Position numbers and translations under genes: made by a program. This document shows positions 1 through 39,600 of a stretch of DNA of 64,000 nt, one piece after another (position 1 is the stretch's first letter; each line of letters starts with the position of its first letter). The stretch covers positions 770,098-834,097 of the forward strand of contig NW_001865048.1 in the NCBI RefSeq assembly GCF_000002865.3. Direction: 5' to 3'. This DNA comes from Monosiga brevicollis MX1. Its lineage: Eukaryota. Below the pieces are notes generated by a model that was not told the DNA's origin, did no database searches, and was given only the letters and a program-made list of their open reading frames with translations.

Positions 1-1023
1 TGCGCACGCACTTGAAGAATGCTCCCAAGCCCGTACTTAACCGTACGGCCCCGTCGTCCTCCTCTTCTAGCTCCAGCAGCAGTGATAGTGATAGCGACAG
101 TGGCAGCAGTAGCAGTAGCAGCGGCAGTGGTAGCAGTAGTAGTAGCAGCAGCAGCAGCAGCAGTCGAAATGACTCACGCAGGCCCTCGCCTCGTCGTGCA
201 CCCGCGCCTGTGTCTGCACAAGATGGTGCCAACCCTGGCCGTCGGTCCCGGTCTCCGCCCCGCCGATCCCGGTCTCCGCCCCGCCGCTCCCGGTCTCCAC
301 CCCGCCGCTCTCGGTCTCCGCCCCGCCGTTCTCAGTCTCCGCCCCGCCGCTCTCGTTCTCCACCCCGCCGATCCCGGTCTCCACCCCGCCGCTCCCGGTC
401 TCCACCCCGCCGCTCTCGGTCTCCGCCCCGCCGTTCTCAGTCTCCGCCCCGCCGCTCTCGTTCTCCACCCCGCCGATCCCGGTCTCCACCCCGCCGCTCT
501 CGTTCTCCACCCCGCCGCTCTCGTTCGCCTGCCAAGGATTCCAGCAACGGTGCGCCCGTTGGCTTGCACCCAGAGCGTCTGGCGATGCTGCAAGGTGGGG
601 CAGCTGGAGGCCCTCCTCGCAGGGGGGGACCTCCTGCCCGAGGACGGCCACGCTCTCCCCCACGTCGGCGCCGAGACAGCCGTTCTCCCCCACGCCGCCG
701 CCGAGACAGCCGTTCTCCTCCACGCCGCCGCCGAGATAGCCGTTCTCCGCCTCGTGGCCGCCGAGATAGCCGTTCTCCGCCTCGTGGCCGCCGAGATAGC
801 CGTTCTCCGCCTCGTGGCCCTCGCTCTAGTCGTTCGCCGCCACGCAGCCCGCCTCAGCGCCGGTACGTCTTCACACCGTCGTTGGTTTTTTGCCATTCAT
901 CCTCGCCCTCCACCCTGTTCTCCACTCATGCCTCTTGTATGTGTATCCCCACCCTTACTCCCATTAAGCTCTCCTGGTGGAGGACGCTCGCCGTCGCCCA
1001 AGCGCGCCGATCGTCGCGAGTAG
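1..1023 (+). CDS. CWC22: Pre-mRNA splicing factor CWC22, 3' end (Ser-rich and RS-repeat tail); gene starts before the window
   Basis: Frame from nt 3 reads RTHLKNAPK followed by poly-Ser/SDSD, like the CWC22 'LREHLKNTPK...SSSSESDSSD' tail. Then (RSRSPPR)n. A probable intron at ~863-968 joins to SPGGGRSPSPKRADRRE*. Confidence 0.75.
241..850 (+). repeat. Coding tandem repeats: 21-bp RSRSPPR units, then 30-bp RRRDSRSPPR-type units
   Basis: Repeated cgccgctctcggtctccgccc-like and cgccgagatagccgttctccgcctcgtggc-like units are directly visible. Confidence 0.95.
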
Positions 1024-1345
1024 GCAAAGGCTTTCCCGGGAGTCATGACTCGGCGTCACACTTGTGGAACTCTTGAATGAATTGCTTTGTTTTGCAATGG
1101 GTGCTTCTGTTCTACCATCCGCCGCTCTGTTCATCAATCGAGCTGAGGAATGCTGTGTGATTGTCAAGTTTGCTGCCTTTTTACCTCTTCCCCTCTCTTG
1201 CTTATTCACTCTCTTTAATGATGACATTGCCACGCTAGCCTCTTCCATCAGCGGCCGCAATCCAAAAGTTAATAACGTGACCTTTTTTCAACATGAATTG
1301 CACAAAGCAGAAAGGATGATATTTGTGCCCTTTGAAGCTCATGGT

Positions 1346-4300
1346 CTACAATTCTCGGTCAAATGCCCCACGCTTGTGCAGGTGAAGCCCCGAAGCTTCA
1401 AAGTCCAGCAGTGCCGGCCTGAACACATCCGGTTTGCGTTGCATTGCAGCCAACATGAGCACCACAATCTATTCGATTCAAGGAAAGGAAGCAATGTCAT
1501 GATGAGTTTTGTACATAGCCACGCCGCCCCCAACCCTCGACGCATGCTGGCCAAACCTCGGCATGGCCCGCTTGCTCGGCGAGTTCTACGGGGATTTCTC
1601 CGACCGGATTGATATTGAAAAGCTGGGACGACACCTAGGCATAACCGAAACAATGGGCATCTGGATGTACTTGGCCAGAACAGGGTGCGGCGCATGTATG
1701 TGAAAATGGTGACTTGGAGACGAACCGCAGGTAAGGTCAAGAGCCACTGAACTACATCTTTGCGACCAAAATGTGCAGCCTTTGCCAAGGTACCATGACC
1801 CCAATGATTGAGTCGCTGGAAGGGCAAGTGATGGCAGGTTGCAGTGAGAACAGTTTTGCCAGTATGCCTTTCTTCGACTGCCCCGCTTCCATACCGTGAA
1901 ATCAGCCTGCCGTTGATACAGCCAATGACAAATGTCCAGATTGCCACCAGCAGCTGCCCAAATGGCACTGTTGCAGCCGGCATTGCTCAACGTCTCAATG
2001 TGAAAGTGCAGTTCATCCACCAGATACTGTATTACGGGCAGATGCCGCCCCCATACTGCGCGGGCCGATAACACCAACAGCACGCTTGTGAAATCAGGCA
2101 GAGCAAGTCGACAATACCGCGCCAGATGTCAGGGCACTTTCAAGCCAGCCTGCGCCCTACCAGCCCAATGCAGACAGCTCACGCCCTTCTTGGTGACAGC
2201 TTGAACGTCGGCGCCCGCAGAGCACAGCGCTCTAAGGGAAACAACGGGGGAGGGGAGGGGGGGGGGGGGGGGGGGGGGGGTTTTTTAAAAAGGGGTTTTT
2301 TTTGANNNNNNNNNNNNNNNNNNNNNNNNNNNNNNNNNNNNNNNNNNNNNNNNNNGGGGGGGGGGGGGGGGTGGTTGACAAGGGTGCTTTTTGAGAGCAT
2401 CAAGGATCAAACGAACAAGGGGTGAAGAAGGCCAAGCTAACCGAATAACTTCCATGTGCCCATTTCGACACGCCCAGTGCAAGGGAGTACGAGCTTCTCG
2501 GCTCATACGATCCACTTGAACACCTTGCTCCAGCAGCCATGTGACACAGCTCAGATGGCCTTGTCCTGCCAGAAGCGTGCCAAACGAATCAAAAAGAGAT
2601 TAGCCTGTGTTGCTCAACTGCATCATCCAGCGATCCATGAACAGGCAATAAAGGCAAGGCGGAAGGGGTAGTACCGGCAGCCCATGCAAGCAAGGATAGG
2701 CCATGACGATCATGGACCTCATCAAGCCCTGGGTGATTAGGTTGAGTAACTCGTTCTTGCAATGCACCCAAGTCGCCCATGCGCGCTGCCCACATGGCTA
2801 TCATCCACGACACAGCATTTTTAACGCAAGCATGTGAGCAGAACTTCGCGGCTGAGAGCAGAATAGAGTAGAGGCATGTTGAGCTCTGGCATTGCGAAAC
2901 CTACAAGAGGCTTCGTCATAGGCACTTTCCCGTGCTGCGTGTATTTGTTGTTGGCGAAGGCGCCCCAACTGCTTCTTTGCCGCGACAGCTTGCTGCTTGT
3001 TGCTCCCGCTCGGAGCGACTGCTGGAGGACGGAGATGCCAGCGGGCTAGGAAAACTGCCACCGCCACATCGGTACGATAAAGCTCCTCCGGGCTCAGTTC
3101 CTCAACGTCGCAGTGCCGATGGAGCAGCTCTAACAACTCTGTAAGGCGTAGCGAGTCGATGCCCACCTAACAAAATGCAAAAGGATTCGGCACAATCATG
3201 CTGAGAAAAAAAAAAAAAAAAAACACCATCACGAACCAAGGGCATTGTGCGAGGAAGGAAACCACAGGCAGGTAGGCAGGCAGGCAATCGGATGGGGGCA
3301 GTCGGACAGACGTCGTACCTGTTCCAAGGTGAGGTGGGCATCACGTGGCAAGTTGATGGCGCAAAAAGTGACCAGTAAAGCTTCGGGAGTTAGGTGCTTT
3401 GGAATGTCGGCTGTGCAAGCAGACGCGAGATGCATTTCTTGAACCTGCAGACTGAGAGCCTGTGTCCCAGCTGCAGTTGTCAACCGCAGCAGCCGATGGT
3501 TTGTGGGCCGGGATAGACCGTTCAAGAGCCGGGAAAGGTGCGCACGCTGAATCTTGCCTGTCGCTGTTCGAGGCAATGTTGCGCCAAGAACAATCAACTA
3601 TTCACAGAAAATGTTTGGTGAGCTGTCGAGCACGGGGAGGAAGATACACTAGACTATTCCACCACTCCACCCCATCCCCACGCCCCCTGAAAGGGGGCGA
3701 ATGTTCTGGTCGAATGAATCAAACACGGCGCAATCTTTTTTTTTTTTTCCATACCTCGGGGCGCCAATGCGCGGGTAGGAGGCGGTGTTCCAAGAGTGCC
3801 CGCAGAGCATGCGCGGCTGGGTCATCCTCAAAAGCAAGAGCCACGGCCTCACCCAAATCATCATGGTCGACGGCGAAAGCTGCAAACCGCAGGCCTGGAA
3901 AGTGTGGCTGTAGGGTTGCTTCAATCTAAGACGATGCTCCAAGAAAGCGGGATGAGGTGGCACAGACGGTGTGCAGAGAAGAGCTACTGATACGCGGCTG
4001 GCCGGCCAACGCGTACCTCGCGCGGATTGAGTTTTTCACCGGCCCTGTTGATGAAATCCTTGAGGCGGCCTTCAAGCTTGACGCAGCCGTGCCCGTCAAT
4101 TCGGGCTAAATCTCCGGTTTGGAACCAGCCGCTGCTGTGCACAGGTAGATAGACGGAGCCTAATGGGAAGGCGACAATTGTGGGTGAGGCTGACTCTAGG
4201 ATGGGGGCGGGCAAACAAAGGAACGTGCAAAGACGCGGCCATATAAAAAAGTACAAAAGCGCGATGATTACTCGGTTAGGTGACAGCCGACCCACCGTTG

Positions 4301-5499
4301 TCATCCTCGTATGGGTTGAGGGCGGGGCCACGTACGCACAGCTCGCCCGTACCCTGATTGTGGACGCGATCGTCAGCTGCCAGCACACCCACCTGAACGA
4401 CCGGTGCACAGGCGTGGCCAAGAGAGTCACAGGAGGGGTTCGTGGAGAGGAGGGAAGGAGAACACATGGGCATGCATTCCGTCATAGCGCAGGTCGTCAG
4501 CATGCGACAGCCCGTCAGCTGGGCCAAGGCTGCGGCATCCGCAGGGGCAAGATGGGCGCTGCAGTTGCGGGCAAGGCGCAGTCGAGGCAACGGGGCAACA
4601 TGTGCAGGGGAATTGCGCAGCACACGCAAGAGTCGGCGATGGGCTAAGGGCACGGCAGAATACCAGGTGACCTCAAAAGCCCGTAGAGCCTCTAGAAGGC
4701 CAGGCCCATCCGCCATGGTCGCTGTCGGGAGAAGAACGAGGCTAGCACCGGCAAACAGGGTAGCAAACAAATTTACCACCAGGCCGTGAATGTGATAGAG
4801 CGGTAGTGCGTTGCAGCCCACGTCTTGGCTGGTCAACTGCAGGGTTTGAGCGATGCTGGCAGCGGCACGCTCGCAATTGACTTGAGTCAGTAACACGCGC
4901 TTGGGTGCACGTGTGGTGCCAGAGGTTTGCATGACCAGGGCCACGCGATGAGAAACCTCTCCGTTTGCATCGTGCCATCGGGCTCCCTTGAGCTGAAGCT
5001 GCGAGATGTCTGGCTCATCGACCACCTTGCGTTCAGCACAAGCCATGTCAAGGGAAGACTGTGGCAGGATTGGGTCTGCCAGATAGAAGAGTGGACTGGA
5101 CGACGTGGCAGGTTCTGCTGACTGCGAGCCGGTGTGTGCCCAGAGAACGGTGATGTACGGACTGAGACAGCGCGTCAGGGATACGGCAGCTGGATGAGTG
5201 GCCTCGATGCAGAGAGCATCAACGCGCAGGTGGGCCACGGCACGGGCCAGGTCAGAAACCGATCCACGCGGGTCCATGGGAGTATATTGGGTGCGCGGGG
5301 CAAACAGGATGGCTGCTGTCGCGTAGTACGCGTGATGCTGAGCAATAAAGGCCAGCCGCAAGTTGGATGGTAGCTGGCAGAAGGGCTTTGCCTTTGCTTG
5401 TTGGTCAGCCCAAGCTGCCACGGCCTCATAGCTGAGGACGTGGTGTGCGGCGCCCCACCGAAAGAGAGGCCCGTGGCCCCGCGCAACCCACGTGTCCAT
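1346..5499 (-). CDS. NRPS-like protein: adenylation domain (oxalate-CoA ligase/PCS60-like) + phosphopantetheine carrier domain + about 6 ankyrin repeats; multi-exon
   Basis: A-domain motifs QTSGTTRAPK, LPLYHIHGL, TWYSAVP, CAMTE, GWFQTGD, GRLKDFINRAGEK, LPRTATGKIQR. Spliced LTLEQ|VGIDSL carrier motif (intron 3318-3167). Ankyrin motifs GLSLLAWAAG, RTPLHWACRNGH, GVSCLHWA, NSAIWAAAGGN. An assembly gap lies in one predicted intron. Confidence 0.8.
2306..2355. other. Assembly gap (50 N) flanked by low-quality poly-G
   Basis: N run in the sequence. Confidence 1.
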
Positions 5500-5759
5500 G
5501 GCGGTCCACCCCCAATTCACCTGCTTCTGCCCCGAACACTTTCCCCACTACCCATACGCACTGTCACACCTTTTGCCCAATCACCTCAAAGACTTGACTC
5601 TCAACTCCCAACTCTATCTCGTACAGTCCCTCACTCACGGCCCCGCCCGCCCGCCCGCCCGCCAACCGTAAACCCGAACGTTTGCCGTGCTCGCAACACA
5701 TTCGTTGACTCAAATGACCACTTTTGTCTGACATTTCAATCACTCATACACACCACAAA

Positions 5760-5873
5760 CACACACACACACGCTCTCTCTCTCTCTCTCTCAAACTCTC
5801 TCTCTCTCTCTCTCTCAAACTCTCTCTCTCTCAAACTCTCTCAAACTCTCTCAAACTCTCTCTCTCTCTCTCT

Positions 5874-5909
<36 letters not shown>

Positions 5910-5935
5910 CTCTCTCAAACTCTCTCTCTCAGTCT
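5760..5935. repeat. (CA)n then (CT)n microsatellite punctuated by CAAA, in a divergent intergenic region
   Basis: ctctctcaaa units between head-to-head starts at 5499(-) and 6169(+). Confidence 0.95.
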
Positions 5936-6168
5936 CAGTCATCAGTCTTTTTTTTTTGTCTGAACAGCTGGTTGGTGGAGTTGATCGCGGCGGTTGGCAG
6001 TGGCGCGGGTGAGGGGGGGGACAATGCTGAGCTGTGTTGCGCTGGCAAGGACATGGAATGAGGACCATTGGGTGGAATTAAGGGCGGGGGTGTTCTGACT
6101 GGTGTATGGATGGGGTTTGCTCGCTTCATAGATTGGTCGTGTGCTTCATCGCCATATCGGGGAGTGCG

Positions 6169-7570
<1,402 letters not shown>

Positions 7571-16819: not shown

Positions 16820-19800
16820 ATGGCGCTCCTCCTGCTGTTGGGCCTCGTCTTGGGGGCTCGTACCGATGAGGACTTTGCCGCCAACATTATCAACAACCTG
16901 CAGCGCCCATCTGTGCGTTGGAAGATATCAGCTGACCATGGCAATGACGCTGCTGCCTCACGACACTGCGAGCCCTGATCTTGTCTCACTCGGCTGCATG
17001 CCTGCGGATAAGCGCAGACAATCAATGACGCGTCGGCACCTGCCAATCCTACTGCACTTGCCTACCAAAGGTGGGTCTGCCTCGCTCTGTCTGAACCCAT
17101 GCATGGACGCTGTCAGCAAATGGTGTACTGCAATCGTGCTTCGACAGCGTGGGGGCGAGCCCCATGGCGATCGCGCCAAATGCTTTTCAAGAACTCTATG
17201 CCGACAATCGCGACCTTTGGGGTGACTGTTCTCCAGAGGTATGTGGCCGTCTCATGATGGTCCCCCTGAGCCAAAGTCACCTCCTCCGTTTCATCATTTC
17301 AGCCCAACCGCTCTCATCTCAGCTGCCCCCGGGCCCCCTCCCGATCTTGCCAGGATGCCTATGTCAACTACATGCGTTCGCAGTCAGGCAATGTAGACTC
17401 GGCGCGACTCCTGATGGAATTCTCAATGGTACCCTCGGTCAAAACCATGGGATCTGATCTTCACACAGCAGCGGCGCGTGGCGACGAAGAGGCGCTGATG
17501 GCCCTCCTTGACGTTGAAACCGGCAGCAGCCTGGTCGACCCCGTCAAGATGGATGGCACCACGCCTCTCCTTACAGCAGGTTTGGACCTGGCCCGACTTG
17601 CCCTTGTAGGACATGCTTAACTGCATCTCGCTCACGCTGCGCAAACACGCAACCCTTTGTTCATGTCCTTTTGTTCAGCCATGCTGGGTCAATCACGGAC
17701 CGTGGAACTCTTGTTGGAGCAAGGTGCCGATCCCGAGAAAGGTCAGTCGACCATCCTGTCTGCTAACCAGCCGCTCTACCGCACGCACAGCTTGGTTTCT
17801 GCTGGATGCTTAAGCCATGTTGACCCTGTTTGACGATTTTTACACATTCATCCTTAGTTGGCATGAATGGAGCCACGCCCCTTATGGTGGCAGCCAGCAT
17901 GGGCCATGTGTCCGTCCTGGAGCTGTTGCTCAACCATGGTGCCAATCCCAATACCAAGCACAAATTTGCTGGTTCAACAGCGCTGCATTTTGCCGTTGAG
18001 ATGGGCCAGGTTTGTGGTGATTCTGATTGAATTGAGCCATTCCCTCGTGCTCTAGCTTTCCTCCGCGCAGTCAATGCCAGACGTTTGAGCTGAAATGTCC
18101 AAACCCCTTGCTAAATTTGAATTGCTGACCCAGATTGGGGCCATTGAGCTTCTCTGTCGCAAAGGCGCTGATCCTGAAAGCGTGAAGAGCAATGGAGGCC
18201 GACCTCTGCACGTGGCCGCGGACGCCAATCAATCAGCTGCTACACGCACCCTCATCAAGGTTCGAGGCCCAACGGGGCCCATACCTGTCCGCTGGCAAAT
18301 TCACTTCCGCTTGGTGTCTCATGGTAGCTACTCGGTGACCGAATGCTCGCCTACGCAGATTTGCCATGCCGATGTCAACGCACTGCTCCTCGGAGACACC
18401 ACCGCCATGTACCTCGCCGGTGCGCGCGCATGCCAAGCACCGTGATCTTTGTACCAATCGCCCTGCTGTGTCTGACATCGCATGCTCGAATAGCTCAAAA
18501 AGGGTTTACAGCAGTTGTGCAAGAACTGCTGGCCAGTGGCGCCAACCAAAATTTTGCTATGCCCGAATCGGCTGACACGCGAGCTTTGGCTATACCATCG
18601 AGCGAGTCGGTCGTGGGCGCAACCGATACGCCAAAATCATCCGATGAGGAGGAGGAGCTCTTTCGATGGTCCCGTCAATTTCTCCAGCAAGGCTCTGGTA
18701 TGTCTGAAGCCCACTCCAAGTTCCCCAAGACCACAGCTCCCAACACCGCTCGTCCTCGTGCAGCTCCTTACTATCTTTGTCCCACGGCTACGACGTCAAA
18801 CTGCAGATCCATCTGCTGCGGGGTACGAGGCAGGCAATGGTGCTACAAGCTTGCACGCTGCCGTCGAAAATGGCCATCTAGAGGTTGGTGCGCTGTCTTA
18901 ACACGGATGCACATTCCCCATACCATTCCAGAAGCAGCTTGCTCGGCTGAGTAGAGGGGACTCATTTTTTAACGGATTTCATACGCCCGCTGTCATACGC
19001 CCCCGTGGCTGCACCGTTCAGACTGTCAAGCTACTTCTGGAACACGGCGTTCAACAGACCAACTCGATGGAAGGCGCAACACCACTTTGGACCGCTGTTG
19101 GTGTGTGGACAGTCTTTGTCATGGTGTCGCTTGGCCTGTGTCTTTCATACTGTCGTACATGATGCTGATGTGCTACATTCACCAAAACCGCATGTTATAG
19201 AATACAATCGGCCAGAAATAGCCCGGCTTTTGCTCAGCCATGGCGGAGACCCCAATGTCCCCATGAAGGGTAGCGGCAACAATGCTCTCTGGCGAGCACT
19301 CATCGCCCGTCGGCTTGAAGTGTGTCATGCAAAAATGCAGGCATTCTGGTCGACATGATAGACAAGCTCCTTCATCCAACAGCAGCAGCTCTTGTGTTTG
19401 AACTCATCCCTGACCTGCACCCTCTCGACCTCAGCTTGCCGCCATCTTGCTCGAAGGTGGTGCCGATGCGAATCAACCAAACTTTGAAGGCTGGAGCGCG
19501 ATGTACTTTGCCTGCAGCCTGGGGTGGACGCAGGCCATGCAGCTACTTATGCGGTATGCCCGTCGTACAATGCGCAGGCCTGCCGGTGTTTTTGTTGTCA
19601 TTGTTTGGCTGTTGGGCGTTGTGGCTCCGAATTTGTCATTGCAGGCATATACTTGATTCGGAATTTGGCACGCACGCGCAGATTCGGTGGCAACCCGTTT
19701 GCACCGGCTCGGGACAACTCGACCTGCTTGCACATTGCAGCCGAACAGGGCCACATGGCCATTATTACCGGTCTACTAACGCTGCAGCCCGCGCTGGGCA

Positions 19801-21109
19801 TGGAAGCAGTTGGCGCTGACCAACAGGTGGGCCACTAATATTCTCTGTGTGTCGCATTTTATGTGTGATACTTTACTCTTGTGTCGCGGAACTTCAAGAC
19901 TGATCGGCGCTTGTGGCATAGACCATGTTGCACTACGCATGTCGAGGGAATCGCGTTGATGTTGCTCGCTACCTGCTTGAGCGGAATGCCCAAGTGGAAG
20001 CCCGCGTGGCAAGCTCCGGAGCCACCCCCTTGATGCTTGCTGCTCATCATGGTAGTGCTGCGCTGGTATGTAGTTGGACCAAAGTTTTACACCCGTTGCT
20101 CAAAGGACCCTTCCGATTACAACCTCATTTCAGCGTTCAATGTCTAGGTCAAGCTGTTGTTGGATGCTGGTGCTGACGTCAATGCCACCTGCAACTCACA
20201 ATTTTATCGAACCACTGCCTTGTACATGGCCGCTCGCCGTGGCCAGTGAGTCGCTCCAGCCCCCAGCAACTTGGGCTGCTGCTTGAACTGTCTTTCTGAA
20301 TGCCTCCACGAGTGCTCAAAGGCTTGGACAACCTCTTTACCCTTTGCAGCTTCGACATCGTTCAGCTACTGCTCCAATCCGGGGCGGCGATTCACATGCG
20401 ATTGACAACGGGAACTTCACCACTCTTTGTGGCCGTGGAGAGTCGCAGCCTGCAGGTGATGCGTCTGCTCCTTGAAAAGGGGATCCGCGTAAATTTACGT
20501 GATACCAAGGGCGCGAGTGCTCTCCACCTTGCTGTCAAGGTGAGTGCGATTCGGGCTTTTGGGACCCAGTGACCAATCGTTTGTATGGCCGTTGAGCTGA
20601 CCAGATCATTCACTCGTGTTTTCATTCGCCTGACCGGGCTTCAGACCAATCAAACGACGGCTGTCGACCTGCTTCTGCAGCATGGTAAGTGGCACAGCAT
20701 AGGCCTGTCCTCTCATCCATCCGTCATGAATTGCTAACGCATACGACTCTGTTTCCCCGGGCAGGTGCTGATCCCACCGCGCGCGCTCGAGACGGCGATA
20801 GCCCCATCCATATGGCCTATGCCAACCGCAACTACAAAGGTGAGTTGTGACTCGTGTTTGTCAGGCACCACGGCATACAAAACCGTGCATAATCGGGGAT
20901 TTGACACTAACAATGTCACGCTTGGGCACTGATACCCCTACCCGACTGTGTGGGCGCTAGCCGTGTCTCTGTTATTAGAACATGGCGCTAGTCCCAATGC
21001 TGTTGGAACGCATGGCCGAACCCTGCACGAACTTGCAGAACTTAATCGTGATTTTGCGCTCATCAAGCTCTTGGGCCACCATGAAACCTCATCACATTCC
21101 GAATTGTAG
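16820..21109 (+). CDS. Long ankyrin-repeat protein with signal peptide and C-terminal HSEL; many exons
   Basis: MALLLLLGLVLGARTDE start. More than 12 ankyrin motifs (GTTPLLTA, GATPLMVAASMGH, GSTALHFAVEMG, GRPLHVAA, TSLHAAVENGH, GATPLMLAAHHG, GTSPLFVAVE). Last exon ends LGHHETSSHSEL*. Confidence 0.85.
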
Positions 21110-23512: not shown

Positions 23513-23818
23513 AAAAGCTCAAAATGAAAAGCTGCCTTGCTTTGAGATGCAGCCCACATCACCAGCTCAGAACCCAAGAAGATTCAATTAAAAAGATATA
23601 GATAGCATGGGAGAGCTCTCTTGGTCAAAGCTCGAGAACAAACAGTTCCTATGTTCATGGCGACTCGGTCGTAATTGGGGACGAGAAAGGCAGGACCATC
23701 ATCCCCACATATATGCTAGAATCATGTGGCCTCATTTTTAACGGTAAAAGGGGTTCACACGTGTACTTTTGGCTCGTCGGGATCTCGTTCAGGCTGCCGA
23801 CTCCACAGGTAACGGATG
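23513..23818. repeat. Direct repeat copy B; overlaps the last codons, stop and 3' flank of the receptor gene
   Basis: Matches 21449-21717 and contains the HPLPVESAA* stop at 23789. Confidence 0.95.
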
Positions 23819-26800
23819 TGACAAGGAAAGCTTTTTGAGCAAGGGCGGTTGGAGCTGCAGTAAGGCTGCGGCTGCTTCCATGGTACGGCGCCGTGGCTGC
23901 AGACGGTGTCCGTTCACAGTCACGAATCCATCCGTGTCTTTATCCAACAAGTGGTGCACTACATTATGACTTCGCAACAGAGACAAAGCATATGATTGGC
24001 CCTGGCGATGCCGCACCAACCAGGTTCCCTCTTGGTCAGCTTGAGAGAGGCGTGCCTCGGTCTCTTCACGCGAAATCTTTCCGTGAAACCATGGTTGTGC
24101 AGTCAAGGCTTGATGTTCGCGCACACAGCTGGGAAGATCTTCGACAAGCCAGCGCTCAGAGCGCAAGGGGGCCAGACAAGCGCGTCCAGGCTCGCGTTGC
24201 AGGCGCAATAGCACCTGGCTCAGGGTTTGGGCCCCCGGTATAGGGTTTTGATTAAAGCGCAACTCACCACCCTGCTCATCCAACACATAGTGGGCAACTT
24301 TTGCATCGCGAACGAGCACCGATGCCACGAAAGTGTCATTGTTCGTACTATGGCGCAAGAAATAAGAGCCAACAGGCCGGTCGAGCAACATGCGCTCCAC
24401 TTTTTCGCGAGGAAGGTCTTCCACATATGTGGGATGAGCCTGCACTTGAACAGCGAGCGGAATCTCGCGATCAGTAAAGCCATACACCTCTTCTTCAACG
24501 TCCAAGGTCTTGCTTGCCCCTGATGCCATCTGTACAGGTCCTGACTTGAAAACGCCGTACTCAGCATTGGCGTCAAGGTCATTCTCACCAGAAATAACCT
24601 CCGGTACTGTTCGAGGAAGTGAGCTGGGGACATCGTAGGTGTCTGTTGATGAATCCTCGCGTGGTGCCAAATTTGAGTGTGGAGCATCAGGAACGGCATA
24701 GGCCACCTCGAAATACGCTCTGCGACGTATACCCTCGTTTGGCTCCGAGTAATCAGTTGAAGCGGGTGGATCGGAGCTCAGCACAGCGTACGGCGTATCA
24801 TAGGTTGACTGGATGGAGAAATCATCGACAATGGAAGTGGCATGGCTGAAGGTTTGATGATGGGAGGCCACAGGCTGCTGATATCCATCGATATCTTGGG
24901 CTAGGGGCATGGACATGGCCGTCTGGTCTCGGGCATTGGGCGAATCATACAACTCCTGCTGCCCCAAGCCGCCGGGTTGCTGATAGCCCTCGCTATCTTG
25001 GGCAAGGGGCATGGTCATGGTCACGGGCATGCCGGTCTGGTCTTGGGCATTGGGCGAATCATACAACTCCTGCTGCCCCAAGCCACCGGGTTGCTGATAG
25101 CCCTCGCTATCTTGGGCAAGGGGCATGGTCATGGTCACGGGCATGCCGGTCTGGTCTTGGGCATTGGGCGAATCATACAACTCCTGCTGTCCCAAGCCAC
25201 CGGGTTGCTGATAGCCCTCGCTATCTTGGGCAAGGGGCATGGTCATGGTCACGGGCATGCCGGTCTGGTCTTGGGCATTGGGCAAATCATACAACTCCTG
25301 CTGCCCCAAGCCACCGGGTTGCTGATAGCCCTCGCTATCTTGGGCAAGGGGCATGGGCATGGCGGTCTGGTCTTGGGCATTGGGCGAGTCGTACAAGCCC
25401 CATGGCTCCTCATCAGAAGCTACCTCATCAAGGCTAAAAGTAAATAGGCGGTCGGTATCACTTTCCAACGAGTGCGCGCCGTTGCCCTGTTCAAGTCTCA
25501 TTCGTTGCTTGCCATGCTGCCGGTCGTTAGGACCAGCGCTGGCATCCTGATCATCGATTGTCTGATACATTTCAAGCGAACTCTTTCCCGACATACTAGG
25601 CCTGTAGGTCGGGTTGATCATCATCGCATGCGTTTGTGGCTCGATAGGGCCAAGAGGGGTTGCCAGTTTGGCGGGATTGGTTTGCTGGCGACGACGAACA
25701 AGCACCACGCTAAGAATGACTGCCAACAGAACAACTGGGATTGCAACTGCCATGGCAAGAGTTGTGGCTGCGAGGCCAGAGCTTGCCGCGGTCGATGTGT
25801 TGGCGACGTCTACATCAGCCACCTGCCCATTGGCGCTCAAGCGATCCCGCACACGCAAGACGTACGCTGTTGCCGGTAACCACGCCAACGTGTTCTGGTC
25901 TCGAACGCAAATATAAAAGTTTGTCATCTGCTCTGCAGCTAACCAGCGTCGCTGGAGCCGGCGGCGTTCGGTCGTCATGCTGACCAGTCGCCGGGTACCG
26001 GGCTCCACATTGAACATGGACGTGTCATGATCATCGGCTGCCACGCGCCCAACCACAAAGACGTACGGTTCTCGTAGCACGTTGCGTAGCATGGTTTCAA
26101 CTTCGACTGCAGTCGGCGCCGAAGCCAAGGGCAGGCTCATCGTCACCCGCACAAGGTTGGCGGCGTCTGGGCGGGAGAAAGGTTGCACAGTGAACAGCTG
26201 GACTGCCGTGGCCGTGTTTCCAAACTGATCACGACAGGTGTAGTTAACGGCATGGTCGCCTGGCGCTTCAACATCCACGTTGTTGAGTCCAGACACACGC
26301 ATATATACGGTAATGTTGCCGTCGTGGTTGTCCAAAGCCTCTGCCCAGCTCACGGGCACCCGGGTGCCGAAGATGATATCTGCTGCGTGAGGGTGGACTG
26401 AAATCACGGGGGCCACCTGATCTACAACTTTGACCCAGCGCGAGGCGCTGGCAGTGCGACCGGCCCCATCGGTCACGTCATATTGCACAAGGAGCTGCGT
26501 ATTCACGGGGAAGGCTGCAGCAATGGCGACAGACCAAGGAATGCCGCTGGCTTGCAGGCGTCCTTCTGCTTGCGCCTCACGTTGCGACACTATCCGATTC
26601 CAGCTTTGATTGGAAGCCGGTAAAAGTTCTCCCGGCTCGGCACCCGATGGCACCTGCTGCAGCAATTCTCCTTCAAAATTGTAAACGCTGATAAGGTAGC
26701 AGAGGTGGGCAGTCAAGTCACCGTCAAGCGCATCATTGGCCGTGGTATCATCAAAAAAGCGCGCGTACTCATCACCAAAATTGACGAGCTGGACATCGCC

Positions 26801-29800
26801 TGCAGTGGTGTTGATTGTGGGACTCAACGTATCTGTGATTGTGACCGAGCGCTGTGCCGTGGCCAGATTGCCCGCCTCATCCGTTGCCGAATATGAGACC
26901 AAAAACACACTGCCTGCGGGCGCGTGCGAGTCGACCTCAGTGAAGGATTCCTTGGACAGGCGCGCCCAGCGCTGTGCTTGGTAGGCATCAGCGGCGGCAG
27001 ATGTCAATACGGACCAATCGGGAGTGGCGCAGCTCACACTGTGCGGGCTCTCCCGTCCTAAAGATGCAAGCTGAATCTCCACAACATCTGCGTCCAAGTT
27101 GCCGTCAACACGATCCGAAGCGGACCACGGCTGCTCGTCGACCCAAGGCGTCCCGCCGGGCCAAGTGCTGTTTGTGACGTTGATGATGGGAGCTGTTGTG
27201 TCCACCAAGATGACGTTTAGAAAACCAAAGCCGGTGTTGTCATTGTTGTCCGCGACGCTTAGCTCGATAACAGCACTGAATGGCGTGAAGGGCGGCTGCA
27301 GGGGCAAGTTGCTCACATTGCTTTGCAAGCGTTTTTGCAGGCCGCTTTGAACGTAGTTGTCTGCCAAGGTATACCAAGTATTCTGCAGCACGTAGACTCC
27401 CTCTACAGGGGCAGCCTCCAGGGTCAAGACATCCTGGGTGACGTCGACGCTGGGTGCAGTGGTGTCCACGACCGTAATAATGCGCCCCACCGAGGCAATG
27501 TTTCCAACCACGTCACGGGCAGAGTATGTGAGAGAGTAGTTGCTTGGTACACCTTGAGATGGCCTTGACTCATAGGACCCCGAAAGGCTGACTGCCACTG
27601 GACCATCCAGCAAGTCTACAGCCCATGCGCCTGGGTCAACAAAGTCCTGGCCTGCTTCCAAAATGAACGGGTTGCTGCCATTGAGCTGAAGATTTGGGGC
27701 CCGCGTATCCACGATCAACAGCGTCCGTGTCGTTGAGTTGATATTTCCCGAGCCGTCCATGACGGTGTAGGTAAGCAGGATGCGAGTCCCGCTCGGTACT
27801 GCGGTGCTGATCGAATCTGGTGCCGGGTTCACAGTGACAGTATTTGAAAGGTTGCCTTCAAAAATGTCCCAAGCTCGCCAGCCAGGTTCTGAGTACTCAA
27901 AGGAGGCCTCAACCTGAACAAGACTTGATCCACGCAATTCAAGTGCCTATACAAGGCGAAAACCAGGAACACCGCATAAAGCCAACGAGTCAAGAAACGT
28001 CAGGGCAAGACTGGTAATGGGCTGTGGAGGTGCCGCTCAGCTATCAAAAGACACACAAAACACAAAACACAAAACAAAACAAAACAAATAAACAACGCAC
28101 CGGTGCCAAGGTGTCGGATATGACTACAGTACGCTGAACGGGTTCGGCCCATAGACCTTGATTGTCAGCCCTTGTTGCCTGGTAAGTAATCAGGCTGGTG
28201 CCCAGCTGAGCTGTGTCAATTTGTGAGGAGGCATCACTTTGTACACCAACCGACGCATCAAGAGCATCATACAAGTCAGCCATCGGGTCAATGAACGGAA
28301 GGCCGGCTTCTTGATGCATGGGGTTGTCACCCCGAAGGGTGATGTAAGGCTTTTGGCCTGACAGCACTTCCACGGTCAAGATGGCCCAAGCAACGTTTCC
28401 AGCAGAGTCCTGGGCGGTGTAATTGAAGGTCTGCACGCCTTCTTGAGCTACATAACATGCATCATACAGTGCGACGTAAGGACGTGTGCGCGCGTGCGTG
28501 TGTGCGAACACCATCTGAGATATTCAATAGTTCATCCGCAGAGAATAGGCAGCCAAGTGGGCATACCAATATCTAAACTATCATCCGTATTGGTTTCCAA
28601 GGGACCATCATAAGTGTCAGAGGCCGTGACGGCCGGCAGCGTGAAAGACATGTTGAGGACTTCAGTAACCAAAGGTGAACTTGGAACATGTATGACAGGC
28701 GGAGTAATGTCTGATTTGACATGTAAGGGCGTGCGTAAGCAAAGAGGGCCAGACAGCCGAAAGCAGGCCCAGAGGCAACGGGGTCTCCTTGGGCACACCG
28801 AAAGTCACGTGGCAACCAGCGCCAAACAAATAAGAGCTGGGGTAATACCGCACGTACCACGACACGCCGTGCGGTTGGATAGAACCGTCAGGCCAACGGC
28901 ACACGGCCAGCAGTCACCACTCTGCGAATTGGGCTGATATGTCCCATCTAGGCAGGTTTGGCAGTAGGTGGCCTGCTGGGGCGCAAAGGAGCCTGCTGCA
29001 CAGGGCTGACAGTCGGTATTGGCGGGTTGGGCAGAAAACTTGCCCGCTTCGCAGCTCTTGCAAGAAGCTTGGGCTGGTGCATCGCTATACAGGCCGGCAC
29101 CACACGGCAGGCACTCGGACACCAGCTCACTGCCCCGGTACTTGCCTGCCTCACAGGTGAGACAAACGCCCGGTGTACCGGGCTCAGAAGATAGAAAGGC
29201 GCCTGAAAATTAACAAAGCAAGGCAGAGTCATGGTATCATGGTAAGGATGGTAACAATGCCGATTCGACATCCCGTCGCGAAGCAATCGATCGATGGGCC
29301 ATGCAAGCGCGGCGAACGGAACGTTCAGATTCATGAACATACCTGCATCACACTGCTCACAAGAAGTTGCTCCCATGGTAGAGGTGTAATATCCCTGATA
29401 CGCATCGCATTCTTCAGTAGTCAAGTCCAAGCAAAATCAAAAGCAGTCAACGGTTGAGCGTGGAATGACATGCGTATCCTCGTTGAGGGATTTACCAAAT
29501 GATGGAGGGAAGTACTTGAGCGAATAAGCAAAGGGCAAACTGCCCACCACGTGCTCATACCTTCGCAGCTTGTGCTCGCTGGCACTGAGGTGAAGGTGCC
29601 ATAGCCACAGACCTGGCAGCCCTGGCCCACGCCGATGCCCACCTGACCAGCCGGACAGTCTAGTTGCAACGTACAAGCCAATGTTGTGAGAAAGAAATTC
29701 ACGCCTGATATATAGGCAGGGGAGCCTAATGTATTGTTTGTGGAGCCGGCAGGTGAAGCGACTTGAAACAAGGCAGTATCAGACCAAGGCAGGTGTCCGA

Positions 29801-36639: not shown

Positions 36640-39600
36640 TCACGGTGGAGTGCGTTTTGTGTACTTCACCTGACGAAAGAGGTGCTGCAAGTGGGCGCGT
36701 CGATCGGCACGCTCACTGGCAATTCGCTCGTCCTGCTTTCGAGCAAGGGGCAGGCGAGTTAGAAGCGTGCTCAGTGATTGACACAGCACATCCAAACGCG
36801 CTACGGGGCTCATGTAGACGGGTACTGGATCGGGCAACGGCTTCCGGGGGGCAAAAAGGCGTTGTTGGGCCGTGCGCAGACGATCCTGCTCCACTTGTGC
36901 GTGAGCATCGTGTACCTGCTGCCGAAGTCGAGCACGCCGGGCCTCCTCTTGTGTCCACGCCAATTGGCGTTCAGCAAAAGCTGTTTCTGCTACTATCCGC
37001 TCCTCTTCCTGAGGGGAGCTCACTTCGGCAGTCAATGGGCTTGGCCACCAATCCAAGCGTGTGCGTAGTAGATCCACCGCAGCAGCCAGCGTAGTGCAAC
37101 CGGTGTCGTGCTGCTCAAGATGAAAGGTGGCCTCCACTTGTGCATCGACCCGCGATAAGTCGGCTCCCTCAGCCTCCCATTGACTGGTGGTGATGGCGCT
37201 GCCTGACAGAGAGGCCACCTCTGACAGAGCCTCGGTGGGCGCTCGGCGTACCAGACGATAGTGCCGTTGCTGGCCCTCATGCACAACAGACAGAATAAAG
37301 TGGTCATTGGTCCGCCGTCTTGGGACACTGCGCACCAGAAATTTACCCTCGATAATGGGGGGCGTGGCCAGCAGCTCTTCTGCGCGCTCTTGATTCAGTG
37401 ATGCAAAGAAAAAAGCCGGCATATCGGGACTCGATGCAGGGCGAGCATCTGTCGGTGGTGTCAACGGCCGCTGTGGACGCAGCTCAGGACTGATGTCCGG
37501 CAGCGAGCCAAACCACGTCGCAGCGTAGTCGCGTTCCCACCGTGCCACGGAAGCCGCGGCGGTCCGAAGGGCTTGACGTCGGGCTCCATCGTCAGCGGGT
37601 GGGGTGCAGAGCGCCGCAAAGCGAGGGCCCACGGCAATCAACATCCGCCGCTGATGGGCAAGCGACGATGAGGAGCCGGTGTCCAAAGATGCGAGAGCTG
37701 AGCGCTCTTGCTGAAGGGCAGCAATGTGGGCCGAAGCTTCGTCTGGTAAAACGCCAAGTTTGGATGAAGCTGAGGCCAGCACCTGGAGCGCCAGGGCGGC
37801 ATCGGGCACCACGTCCATGTAGCCTCCATCCTGGTGTAGCGGCTCTGCCACACCACTGGCTTGCAAAGGATCAAGGGGTTCAATGTCCTCTGCATTGTCA
37901 TACTGACCATCCGTCTGGTTGTCATTCTCTTGATGTCCAGTATCGGCCGTGATTGCCACCATAGGGGCCGCTGTCGTTGTCGTCGTTGTCGTGGTCGGTG
38001 TTGCCGTTGTCGGTGTCGGTGCTGGTCTCGGTGTCGGTGTCGGTGTCGTTGTCGTGGTCGGTGTTGCCGTTGTCGTCGGAGCAGATGTGGTTGCTGAGGG
38101 CAAAGTGCCAACTGAAATCCGCCGCACCAACGGCACCGGCCACCAAGGATGCTTGGACTGCAAGAGAACAACCACCTCGTCCAAAGTCACAGCCTTGGTC
38201 ACCTTCTTATTCACAACAAAAGTGCCACCGGGTTCAGATTTCTGCACGAGATGATGTGTGCACTTGCCGTGATAAAGCACGGAGATAATATATCCACCTC
38301 CCTTGGAATGTCGTAAGAGATAGACACCATCCATCCCCGCTGCTTCGTGTTCCACCAGGGCAGCTGCTTGATCCTTTGACAGCACGCCGTGGACGTCTTG
38401 TTCAGCTCCCGCTGCTGGCAAAGGTGCTGCCGCTTTTGCCGCAGTTCTCGCATCCGGCAGAATTGTGGGAGGGTGTCTTGATGGTTCAACCGTGGTTGTA
38501 GCTTTGGGGGCAGAAGATGAGTCGATCGGCGATACAGGAGGCGCCACGGCCTTGATCAGAGGTACGGGCCAGAATGGCTTGGCGTTGCGCAAACTCTCCA
38601 CCACCTAACAGCCATCATGCGCAGTTTAAGATGCTTCACTTGCAATGGAGGCCTGCGCAAGCATTCGCCCATTGACCCTGCAATGGCTTGGCTATGCGGT
38701 CATTCACGTGTTGCTGTGCTCTTGCGCAAGGCTGGCCCATCAGTCAAAAACTCACCTCGCTTAAATTGCTAGCTTCGACGGTCCCTTTGTTTAAAGCGTA
38801 GGCGTGGCTTCCGGTCTTGATTAGCAGATGGTGGGTCGGCTTGCCTTTGTAAACGACAGATATGACCGATTCATTGAGGTCTGCGTTTGCCGTGTTGGCT
38901 CGTGCTCGGATCAGAAAGGTTCCATCCTCGTTGCCGCAGGCCTGCAAGCGAGCTGCAGAGCGTGGTTGGGTGTGAGCAAGGAGTGGCTGCTTGTCCCAAT
39001 CGCCGCCCTCCCATGAACAAGCTCCGTCACCCTGTGCCGTGAGTGCAGTTCACACCTTCCGCTGTGGCTTTGTCCAAGTTGCCATGGTAAAAATGGCGAA
39101 ATGGCGATCCTTGCAAAGCTGGTGTGAATGCCGACGTGGGGCTTGCCGGCATGATGGTGGCGGTGGTTGGGGGTGCAGTGGAAGATAGAGCTGGAGGCGC
39201 CAACTCTTCAACACGGGCAGGAAGGGCGGGAACCGAAGCAGCATCCGGCGTGTGGTGAACGAGGGTGGTTGACGATGCCTGACGCACCCATGATATGCCG
39301 TGCACGGCGTGCTAGGGATGAGATGCGAGCTCGAGGCAGCTCAGCCGTTGTGTGCGTGCGTGCGTGTGTGCGTGTGTGGATGGGGCACGACCCACCTCTG
39401 TCTCCTCATCTGATTGAATCAGCTGTTGGAGTGGTACTGGCCACCAAGGGTGGGCAGTCTGCAGCAGCTCTGCAATCTGCTCCAACGAGGTGGCAGTTGT
39501 TGTGGTTTGGTTGATAGTGAAGGGGTGGCCCATCTCCATGCGCGTGCACAAGTGATGCGTGGGTTTGCCTACAGCAGAACGAGCAGACGTGAGGTCCTGC

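Follow-up and report, generated by a model that had tools for sequence, protein, structure and literature searches.

Closest described systems

In AASDH (ACSF4-U26) and Ebony, an adenylation (A) domain and a carrier (T) domain share one chain and are followed by a non-canonical C-terminal domain, which in AASDH is a repeat (beta-propeller-like) domain. The A domains of both enzymes are reported to group with the amino-acid activators of non-ribosomal peptide synthetases (NRPS; PMC10531068). The oxalyl-CoA synthetases AAE3, LsOCS, and Pcs60 (PDB 5ie0-5ie3, 6qjz, 8aff) are free-standing CoA ligases of ~515-545 aa. Here, we describe a gene on the minus strand (5499..1346) of a 64,000-nucleotide stretch of the Monosiga brevicollis MX1 genome (contig NW_001865048.1, positions 770,098 to 834,097; hereafter the window) that encodes a protein with an A domain fused to a T domain and to ankyrin repeats (Ank). 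By its sequence, the A domain groups with the oxalyl-CoA synthetases, unlike the amino-acid type found in AASDH and Ebony, and only ankyrin repeats follow the carrier where Lys2/CAR, Ebony, and AASDH have a terminal reductase, condensation-like, thioesterase, or propeller domain. This A-T-Ank protein may be a carrier enzyme that loads itself and uses its ankyrin repeats for delivery.

FkbH-like enzymes load glyceryl from 1,3-bisphosphoglycerate onto acyl carrier proteins (ACPs), and bacterial FkbH-ACP pairs appear in the available sections of that account without an ankyrin domain (PMC7489565). Those pairs place a small hydrophilic acyl group on a carrier, for which the window protein would use an A domain instead of FkbH. 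For dinoflagellates, it has been suggested that proteins combining a carrier with tetratricopeptide repeats (TPR) and no other domains, as well as FabD-like acyltransferase-ankyrin fusions, serve single-domain synthases as scaffolds; glycolate starters are noted in the same study, and an A-T-Ank arrangement is not mentioned in its available part (PMC8283056). Unlike those dinoflagellate fusions, the A-T-Ank family also occurs in choanoflagellates. Ankyrin repeats are coupled to a protein-bound or carrier-bound acyl thioester in the zDHHC13/17 palmitoyltransferases and in ACBD6, and those of zDHHC17 recruit protein substrates. The DHHC and acyl-CoA-binding domains of these proteins are absent here. 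The sole link to them that was encountered is the name given by one source to a Diplonema protein, which probably derives from its ankyrin repeats alone.

Gene structure and transcript

The gene comprises 12 exons that, once joined, give an open frame of 942 aa (Table 1). The frame runs from an ATG at 5499-5497, which opens a 401-codon exon 1 and is the first in-frame start (in-frame stops lie upstream, with no earlier ATG), to a stop codon at 1348-1346. The coordinates and domain anatomy given in an earlier sequence-only reading of this stretch, made without database searches, therefore hold. Ten sequencing runs match the stretch, none of which is recorded as RNA, and four contain ~0.69 of the sampled words. 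Contigs of runs X1, X3, X4, and X8 were mapped on window positions 1000-5800, so that splice joints come from assembled contigs and not from raw reads. The X1 contigs span exons and introns without joints and are thus DNA-like. The contigs of X3 and X4, two samples of one study, contain 11 joints, and 11/11 are GT..AG on the minus strand. Nine of the 11 fall in a single contig of 2734 nt (X3) or 2765 nt (X4), and the length of the X3 contig equals exactly the summed exons 1-10 counted from 5603. Within that contig, in both runs, carrier exon 5 continues in frame into ankyrin exon 6 (2905|2797); separate contigs supply the final two joints (1632/1724 and 1468/1557). The A, T, and Ank domains are thus encoded by one spliced mRNA.

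The sequence-only reading had considered that the ankyrin exons might belong to a separate transcript, and this is not so, since a single contig joins A, T, and Ank. It had also proposed a carrier motif restored only by splicing. The motif LTLEQ|VGIDSL is split by intron 3318..3167 and is whole only after splicing, the exact joint is present in the X3 and X4 contigs, and the Ser codon TCG at 3154-3152 is confirmed in the spliced frame. The run of unplaced letters (N) at 2306-2355, which that reading had treated as a gap to be closed, proved to be intronic (intron 7) and its closure moot; the contig runs from exon 7 to exon 8 without unplaced letters, so no exon is hidden there. The gap, which looks like an assembly problem, has long homopolymers of G, T, and A on either side (plus strand, 2242-2372).

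The public model of this gene (XP_001746244.1, MONBRDRAFT_8559, Monosiga brevicollis MX1; 663 aa, a 100% identical match, here P0012) differs from the spliced frame at two places. It lacks exon 3 (57 residues), and it has no ankyrin part because it continues beyond the exon-5 donor and meets a stop after 34 residues. The truncated model of 663 aa can accordingly be corrected to 942 aa, with one exon restored and seven ankyrin repeats added, in a species that serves as a reference organism for animal origins.

Adenylation domain

A full adenylation domain had been proposed, and in exon 1 the Pfam AMP-binding profile (PF00501) scores 115.8 bits (E 2.5e-33, cut-off 29.9). Exon 1 contains the P-loop TSGTTRAPK (4926-4900) along with the motifs LPLYHIHGL, TWYSAVP, and RNCSA, and the spliced protein as a whole contains what we take to be the core motifs of the fold, namely P-loop, TGD, hinge Arg/Lys, and A10 Lys. 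The catalytic motifs, including A10 Lys521, are among 58 invariant columns in an alignment of nine family members that includes the window protein (alignment A3). The AlphaFold2 (AF2) model of P0012 has predicted local distance difference test (pLDDT) scores of ~66-88 over most of the part encoded by exon 1. In a search of 1.84 billion representatives, the best non-self protein matches were 33-42% identical and covered residues 185-400 only.

Among solved structures, exon 1 matches oxalyl-CoA synthetases best (6qjz, E 6e-30; 5ie0, E 1.6e-28; 8aff, E 1e-18) and a malonyl-CoA ligase more weakly (E 5.5e-13); the family profile matches 6qjz at E 1.8e-105 and another oxalyl-CoA synthetase at E 3e-101. 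The NCBIfam profile for amino-acid adenylation (TIGR01733) gave 78.6 bits, which is below its cut-off of 317.4. The oxalate pocket of AtAAE3 has been described as Val215, His216, Cys288, Ser289, Ala313, Met314, His319, and Lys500, with Ser289 and His319 peculiar to oxalyl-CoA synthetases (PMC8905533). At the first seven of these positions, the window protein has Ile, His, Cys, Ser, Ala, Met, and Pro in the HMMER alignment, and it keeps the equivalent of Lys500 as A10 Lys521. Six of the eight positions thus match exactly, and a seventh has Ile in place of Val; the pocket residues HxH, CS, and AM are common to both, as is the A10 Lys, and the His319 of the oxalyl-CoA synthetases is Pro in the window protein. 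The likeness to AAE3/PCS60 suggested by the sequence-only reading consequently stands as far as the nearest solved relatives are concerned, but oxalate as the substrate is not assured because this oxalate-contact residue is replaced. A motif search, in which a few regular-expression matches in other columns were false, found that 36 of 53 related A domains have Pro at this position, all ten A-T-Ank rows among them, and that 13 of the 53, mostly bacterial, have His. By these sequence criteria, the A domain is a member of the oxalyl-CoA-synthetase branch of the ANL superfamily that lacks one of its defining features.

In a tree of the 53 A domains, the window sequence groups with those of Salpingoeca infusionum and Barroeca monosierra (Shimodaira-Hasegawa-like approximate likelihood ratio test, SH-aLRT, 87). 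The A-T-Ank proteins do not form one clade in this tree (4 changes, of which well-supported branches force at least 2). The A-domain tree says little on origin or transfer because the A-T-Ank proteins are not recovered as a clade and the window branch is very long.

Carrier domain

The carrier Ser, Ser604, lies in a GIDSL motif whose G, D, and S columns are invariant in alignment A3, and GxDS is found upstream of Ank in nine of ten A-T-Ank proteins. Scanned with Pfam PP-binding, 7 of 13 family proteins score above the cut-off (P0171, P0156, P0061, P0170, P0330, P0348, and P0333), three are sub-threshold (P0012, P0035, and P0015), and three have no match at the thresholds used (P0172, P0328, and P0331). 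The PP-binding domain expected by the sequence-only reading is detected in much of the family; in the window protein its score of 19.6 bits falls just short of the cut-off (20.8). For the Stephanoeca ortholog (P0171), the AF2 model has a four-helix carrier in this region (pLDDT 74-86), and helix 2 (661-675) begins at the Ser. The carrier is the least conserved part of the protein, with 15-29% identity to seven relatives. Taken together, it reads as a real but fast-evolving carrier domain with Ser604 as a predicted phosphopantetheine site, which would be phosphopantetheinylated.

Ankyrin domain

Ankyrin repeats were detected above the Pfam Ank_4 cut-off of 22.7 bits in exon 7 (42 bits, E 1e-10) and exon 9 (30.8 bits), as the sequence-only reading had anticipated; exon 6 (40 aa) has no Pfam match. 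A family Ank profile from which the window protein was left out recognizes residues 679-939 at 329 bits, and raw frames of the window match it colinearly, exon after exon. The AF2 model of ortholog P0171 contains seven Ank helix pairs (pLDDT 85-96), and the C-terminal tail encoded by exon 12 can be aligned to choanoflagellate orthologs. Identity between the window protein and seven relatives is 37-51% in Ank, 37-40% in the A core, and 29-32% over the whole N-terminal A part, so that, on these alignments, Ank is the best-conserved part of the protein.

Across 20 aligned Ank domains, a Gly-Cys in repeat 5 and a Lys in repeat 6 are invariant, and a His in repeat 6 is kept in all but P0156, where it is Asn. 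These conserved residues occupy profile positions that are variable in ordinary repeats. With the register of repeat 3 taken from the Pfam Ank alignment and other repeats placed by periodicity, Arg, Cys, and His each occupy the position flanked by the conserved Gly and Thr of the repeat, which we take to be a surface site through which designed ankyrin proteins bind. Because of this placement, a recognition groove with a conserved ligand is favoured over catalysis. Searches of the ESM Atlas returned only generic clusters, of ankyrin and of C2H2 zinc-finger type. Another ankyrin-repeat gene in the window (17824-20569, plus strand) scores only 21-27 bits with the family Ank profile and is therefore a generic ankyrin protein.

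Distribution of the A-T-Ank family

Pfam scans covered 76 of 150 listed protein matches, the 74 left out being mostly much longer or shorter. Ankyrin repeats after an A domain were found in 4 of 75 non-self proteins scanned, and profile and region searches added more. The A-T-Ank arrangement is now recognized in the choanoflagellates Monosiga brevicollis, Salpingoeca infusionum, S. kvevrii, Stephanoeca diplocostata, Bicosta minor, and Barroeca monosierra, in the dinoflagellates Effrenium voratum and Breviolum minutum, and in metagenome clusters P0156 and P0172 and intron-bearing metagenome loci L078 and L080. In the family profile search, A-T-Ank members score 785-1519 bits and everything else scores at most 554, and by this measure the family is small and discrete. 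Ankyrins had been proposed to stand where a condensation (C), thioesterase (TE), or reductase (R) domain would be expected, and in Pfam scans neither the window exons nor any of the A-T-Ank members scanned had a C, TE, R, or propeller domain. The Breviolum minutum protein (P0170) has an additional C-terminal OGFOD2-like 2-oxoglutarate oxygenase domain at residues 1019-1132 (55 bits), which is either a real fusion or a merged model.

A scan of prokaryotes (one genome per species) with the family alignment returned generic ankyrin matches only, at 25-46% identity and confined to the Ank region, with no A-T-Ank among the 77 loci kept; viral contigs scanned with P0156 contained none. In the Ank tree, the deep branches of which lack resolution, Monosiga, S. 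infusionum, and Barroeca group with support of 97/95. The same trio is recovered in the A-domain tree (SH-aLRT 87), which suggests vertical descent within this group.

FkbH-linked and carrier-free relatives

The same type of Ank also occurs behind a different loading enzyme. In proteins from Diplonema japonicum (P0333) and D. papillatum (P0348) and in an ENA protein (P0330), Ank is 45-53% identical to the Ank region of S. kvevrii P0035, and when the three are compared by profile with the A-T-Ank alignment, the match is limited to Ank or to T plus Ank. Their N-terminal parts are FkbH (TIGR01686, 196-239 bits against a cut-off of 146.65, plus HAD-IIIC) and are followed by a PP-binding domain above cut-off. 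The GxDS Ser of this first carrier is kept in both diplonemid proteins; a GMAS stretch seems to replace GxDS in P0330. A second carrier-like segment lies next to Ank in all three, with its Ser replaced by Ala, Thr, or Glu. These comparisons show two unrelated predicted loaders of small hydrophilic acids in front of one type of Ank, and hence a swap of the loader before a T-Ank unit. A description of A-T-Ank or FkbH-T-Ank proteins was not found in the open-access literature searched; subscription journals and supplements may contain one.

Further, related Ank domains exist in proteins without a carrier. Metagenome proteins of ~480-540 aa combine an unassigned N-terminal domain bearing a C2H2-like motif with a related Ank, and in one metagenome protein such an Ank is joined to a stretch that weakly resembles an F-box (20.9 bits, cut-off 24.3). 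Proteins of the zinc-finger-like plus Ank type (L082-L089, e.g., L085:4173-5732, plus strand) are on contigs of 60-74% GC. The Ank of these carrier-free proteins is 29-41% identical to T-linked Ank domains. It retains most of the conserved positions, namely the repeat-3 Arg, the repeat-5 Gly-Cys, the repeat-6 Gly-His and Lys-Ala, and Trp after the helix-1 His position in several repeats. The related subtype adjoins an F-box-like stretch and a zinc-finger-like N-terminal domain, which would fit a role of Ank as a recognition module.

The A domain, in turn, has relatives with other terminal parts. Close A-domain relatives occur in C-A-T, A-T-C, and A-T-TE proteins. In A(-T)-LRR proteins from Aureococcus, Picozoa, and metagenomes (P0008, P0189, P0191, P0204, and P0218), the Pro-type A branch is followed by leucine-rich repeats (LRR) in a layout that parallels A-T-Ank; a carrier is listed in precomputed Pfam annotation for P0189, P0191, P0204, and P0218, and none was found in Aureococcus P0008. 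A-Acyl_transf_3(-T) fusions (P0027, P0029, P0034, P0051, P0072, P0076, and others) pair the A domain with a membrane acyltransferase and sometimes a carrier, an arrangement that we take to be reminiscent of D-alanylation systems. Both groups have the Pro-type A branch in common with the window protein, and in both a repeat array or membrane acyltransferase replaces the release domain; the output domain differs. No characterized member of either group was found in searches.

Proposed function and alternatives

The reading that we favour, tentatively, is that of a self-loading carrier enzyme in which Ank serves as a delivery module that binds a macromolecular partner for a small acyl group. The oxalyl-CoA-synthetase-type A domain would activate a small hydrophilic carboxylic acid with ATP, an oxalate-like and possibly C2-C3 hydroxy or dicarboxylic acid. 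The acyl group would then be held as a thioester on the phosphopantetheine arm of the protein's own carrier (Ser604) and not passed to free CoA. With no release or condensation domain in cis, the seven-repeat Ank would bind a specific conserved partner and would decide where the carrier-bound acyl group goes. We infer the identity of the acid and the binding of the acceptor by Ank; as to the partner, a protein target is slightly more likely than a trans-acting enzyme, and protein acylation by this enzyme is possible. Already in the sequence-only reading, the ankyrins were proposed to bring in either a target protein or a partner enzyme, and the proposal gains circumstantial support because Ank is the most conserved part of the protein, is shared with FkbH-T proteins, and has a relative with an F-box-like neighbour. 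The strongest argument for a functional carrier with Ank acting downstream of it is that unrelated loaders share one Ank.

A number of observations weigh against this delivery reading. The carrier region of the window protein, scanned through P0012 in which the carrier is spliced correctly, reaches an E-value of only 0.0011 with PF00550, and the AF2 model of P0012, an imperfect model without exon 3, has pLDDT scores of 27-52 there. A home-made profile of peptidyl carrier proteins (28 bacterial carrier domains) missed the window protein and found 2 of 13 family proteins, and is thus insensitive. The Pro in place of His319 means that the pocket does not give the identity of the acid, and the window A-domain branch has a length of 2.93 against a median of 0.52, so that relaxed constraint is possible. 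Expression evidence comes from two runs of one study. Moreover, Ank is not dedicated to carriers, because the related subtype occurs without any carrier domain. No partner, phosphopantetheinyl transferase, or acceptor was identified, and the whole M. brevicollis genome was not searched for them.

Several of these points suit an ordinary oxalyl-CoA-type acyl-CoA synthetase with a vestigial carrier and an Ank tail that localizes or regulates it. The best solved relatives are CoA ligases, the A-domain branch is long, and the T domain is both sub-threshold (19.6 vs 20.8 bits) and the least conserved part (15-29% identity). Such an enzyme is nevertheless improbable given that the carrier G, D, and S are invariant in A3 and GxDS is present in nine of ten A-T-Ank proteins, that PP-binding is above cut-off in 7 of 13 family proteins, that the carrier of ortholog P0171 folds confidently, and that the same Ank follows T behind FkbH, an enzyme requiring a carrier. 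Still less likely is that Ank itself is the acceptor or catalyst, with surface residues Cys820, His853, and Lys858 taking the acyl group from the carrier and passing it on. The invariance of Gly-Cys and Lys in 20 Ank domains (and of His in all but one), at positions variable in ordinary repeats, would fit such a role, but the His is Asn in P0156, and the residues are also kept in carrier-free relatives. We know of no catalytic ankyrin repeat. It is hardly credible that the gene is an artefact in which two neighbouring genes or a chimeric assembly were wrongly joined. The public annotation does stop the protein after the carrier domain, contigs rather than raw reads were mapped, and the last two joints come from separate contigs; however, in each of two runs one contig carries exon 5 joined in frame to exon 6, the frame is open over all 942 aa, and the A-T-Ank order recurs in nine other proteins, which come from genomes and transcriptomes of other species.

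A possible, if rather unlikely, alternative is a loader of starter units or building blocks for a trans-acting polyketide synthase (PKS), fatty-acid, or NRPS-like assembly, in which A-T would supply a small acyl-S-carrier (for example with glycolyl, glyceryl, or oxalyl) and Ank, as a scaffold, would dock free-standing synthase or tailoring enzymes. Bacterial FkbH-ACP pairs supply glyceryl-ACP to PKS pathways in this way (PMC7489565), and the carrier-TPR and acyltransferase-ankyrin scaffolds and glycolate starters of dinoflagellates (PMC8283056) point in the same direction, as do the A-domain relatives in C-A-T, A-T-C, and A-T-TE proteins and the extra OGFOD2-like oxygenase domain of the Breviolum member. 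Set against this are the presence of the family in six choanoflagellates and of FkbH versions in diplonemids, in which such pathways were not searched for, and the occurrence of related Ank beside an F-box-like stretch and a zinc-finger-like domain, both non-biosynthetic contexts; partner genes for such an assembly were not identified. To our knowledge, no assembly pathway of this kind has been described in choanoflagellates or diplonemids. Unlikely, too, is a portable acyl-delivery cassette in which T-Ank, charged with a small hydrophilic acyl group by interchangeable loaders (an oxalyl-CoA-synthetase-like A domain or FkbH), uses a specialized ankyrin groove, marked by conserved Arg, Cys, His, and Lys residues together with a Trp ladder, for the acylation of a conserved protein.

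Should such a cassette be borne out, it would represent a post-translational modification system that depends on a carrier protein and occurs in protists, among them the closest living relatives of animals, and possibly a functional cousin of the orphan animal enzyme AASDH. A constant carrier and a particular Ank combined with a swappable loader point to a putative eukaryotic carrier pathway distinct from the classical synthesis of fatty acids, polyketides, and peptides.

Coordinates and surroundings of the gene

Table 1. Features of the A-T-Ank gene, in window positions.
Feature	Position	Strand	Evidence
5' untranslated region	5500..5634	-	Spliced contigs extend to 5603 (X3) and 5634 (X4)
Exon 1, large N-terminal subdomain of the A domain	4296..5499	-	Pfam AMP-binding
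Exon 2, A-domain TGD motif and GRLKD hinge region	4017..4159	-	Joints 4158|4295 and 3925|4017; family A profile, 62.9 bits
Exon 3, part of the small C-terminal A subdomain	3755..3925	-	Spliced contigs; family A profile, 43 bits
Exon 4, A10 motif with Lys521 (3555-3553), A-T linker, first carrier helix	3319..3597	-	Sequence
Exon 5, carrier core GIDSL with predicted site Ser604, remaining carrier helices, basic linker	2905..3166	-	
Exons 6-11, family-specific ankyrin repeats	1557..2797	-	Joints, family Ank profile, Pfam Ank_4
Exon 6	2797..2675	-	
Exon 7	2565..2442	-	
Intron 7, containing the N run	2232..2441	-	Joint 2231|2442, GT..AG
Exon 8	2231..2161	-	
Exon 9	2055..1895	-	
Conserved Ank residue Cys820	1975-1973	-	
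Exon 10	1815..1726	-	
Conserved Ank residue His853	1797-1795	-	
Conserved Ank residue Lys858	1782-1780	-	
Exon 11	1634..1557	-	
Exon 12, coding part: end of last repeat, C-terminal tail, stop codon	1346..1468	-	Joint 1468|1557; frame
3' untranslated region	1283..1345	-	X4 contig covers 1283-1468

The window is eukaryotic in character, with short GT..AG introns and microsatellites, and neighbouring genes have SH2, HYR, BT1, pectinacetylesterase, and actin-like domains. A long CT-rich microsatellite (CTCTCTCAAA-type units) at 5745-5945 lies immediately upstream of the 5' end of the A-T-Ank gene and was skipped as a repeat in the mapping of contigs, and the divergent neighbour at 6170-6740 (plus strand) presumably encodes a Yip1-family membrane protein. 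On the other side, at 16-1023 (plus strand), is a Ser/Arg-rich open frame with a tandem RSRSPPRR-like unit (~240-830) and Ser-rich runs, at which contig depth is 217-276 compared with 21-26 at the A-T-Ank gene (~10x). Long SH2 frames lie on the minus strand at 23792-27946 and 36643-38604, the first of which also contains Bact_surface_Ig-like and HYR domains.

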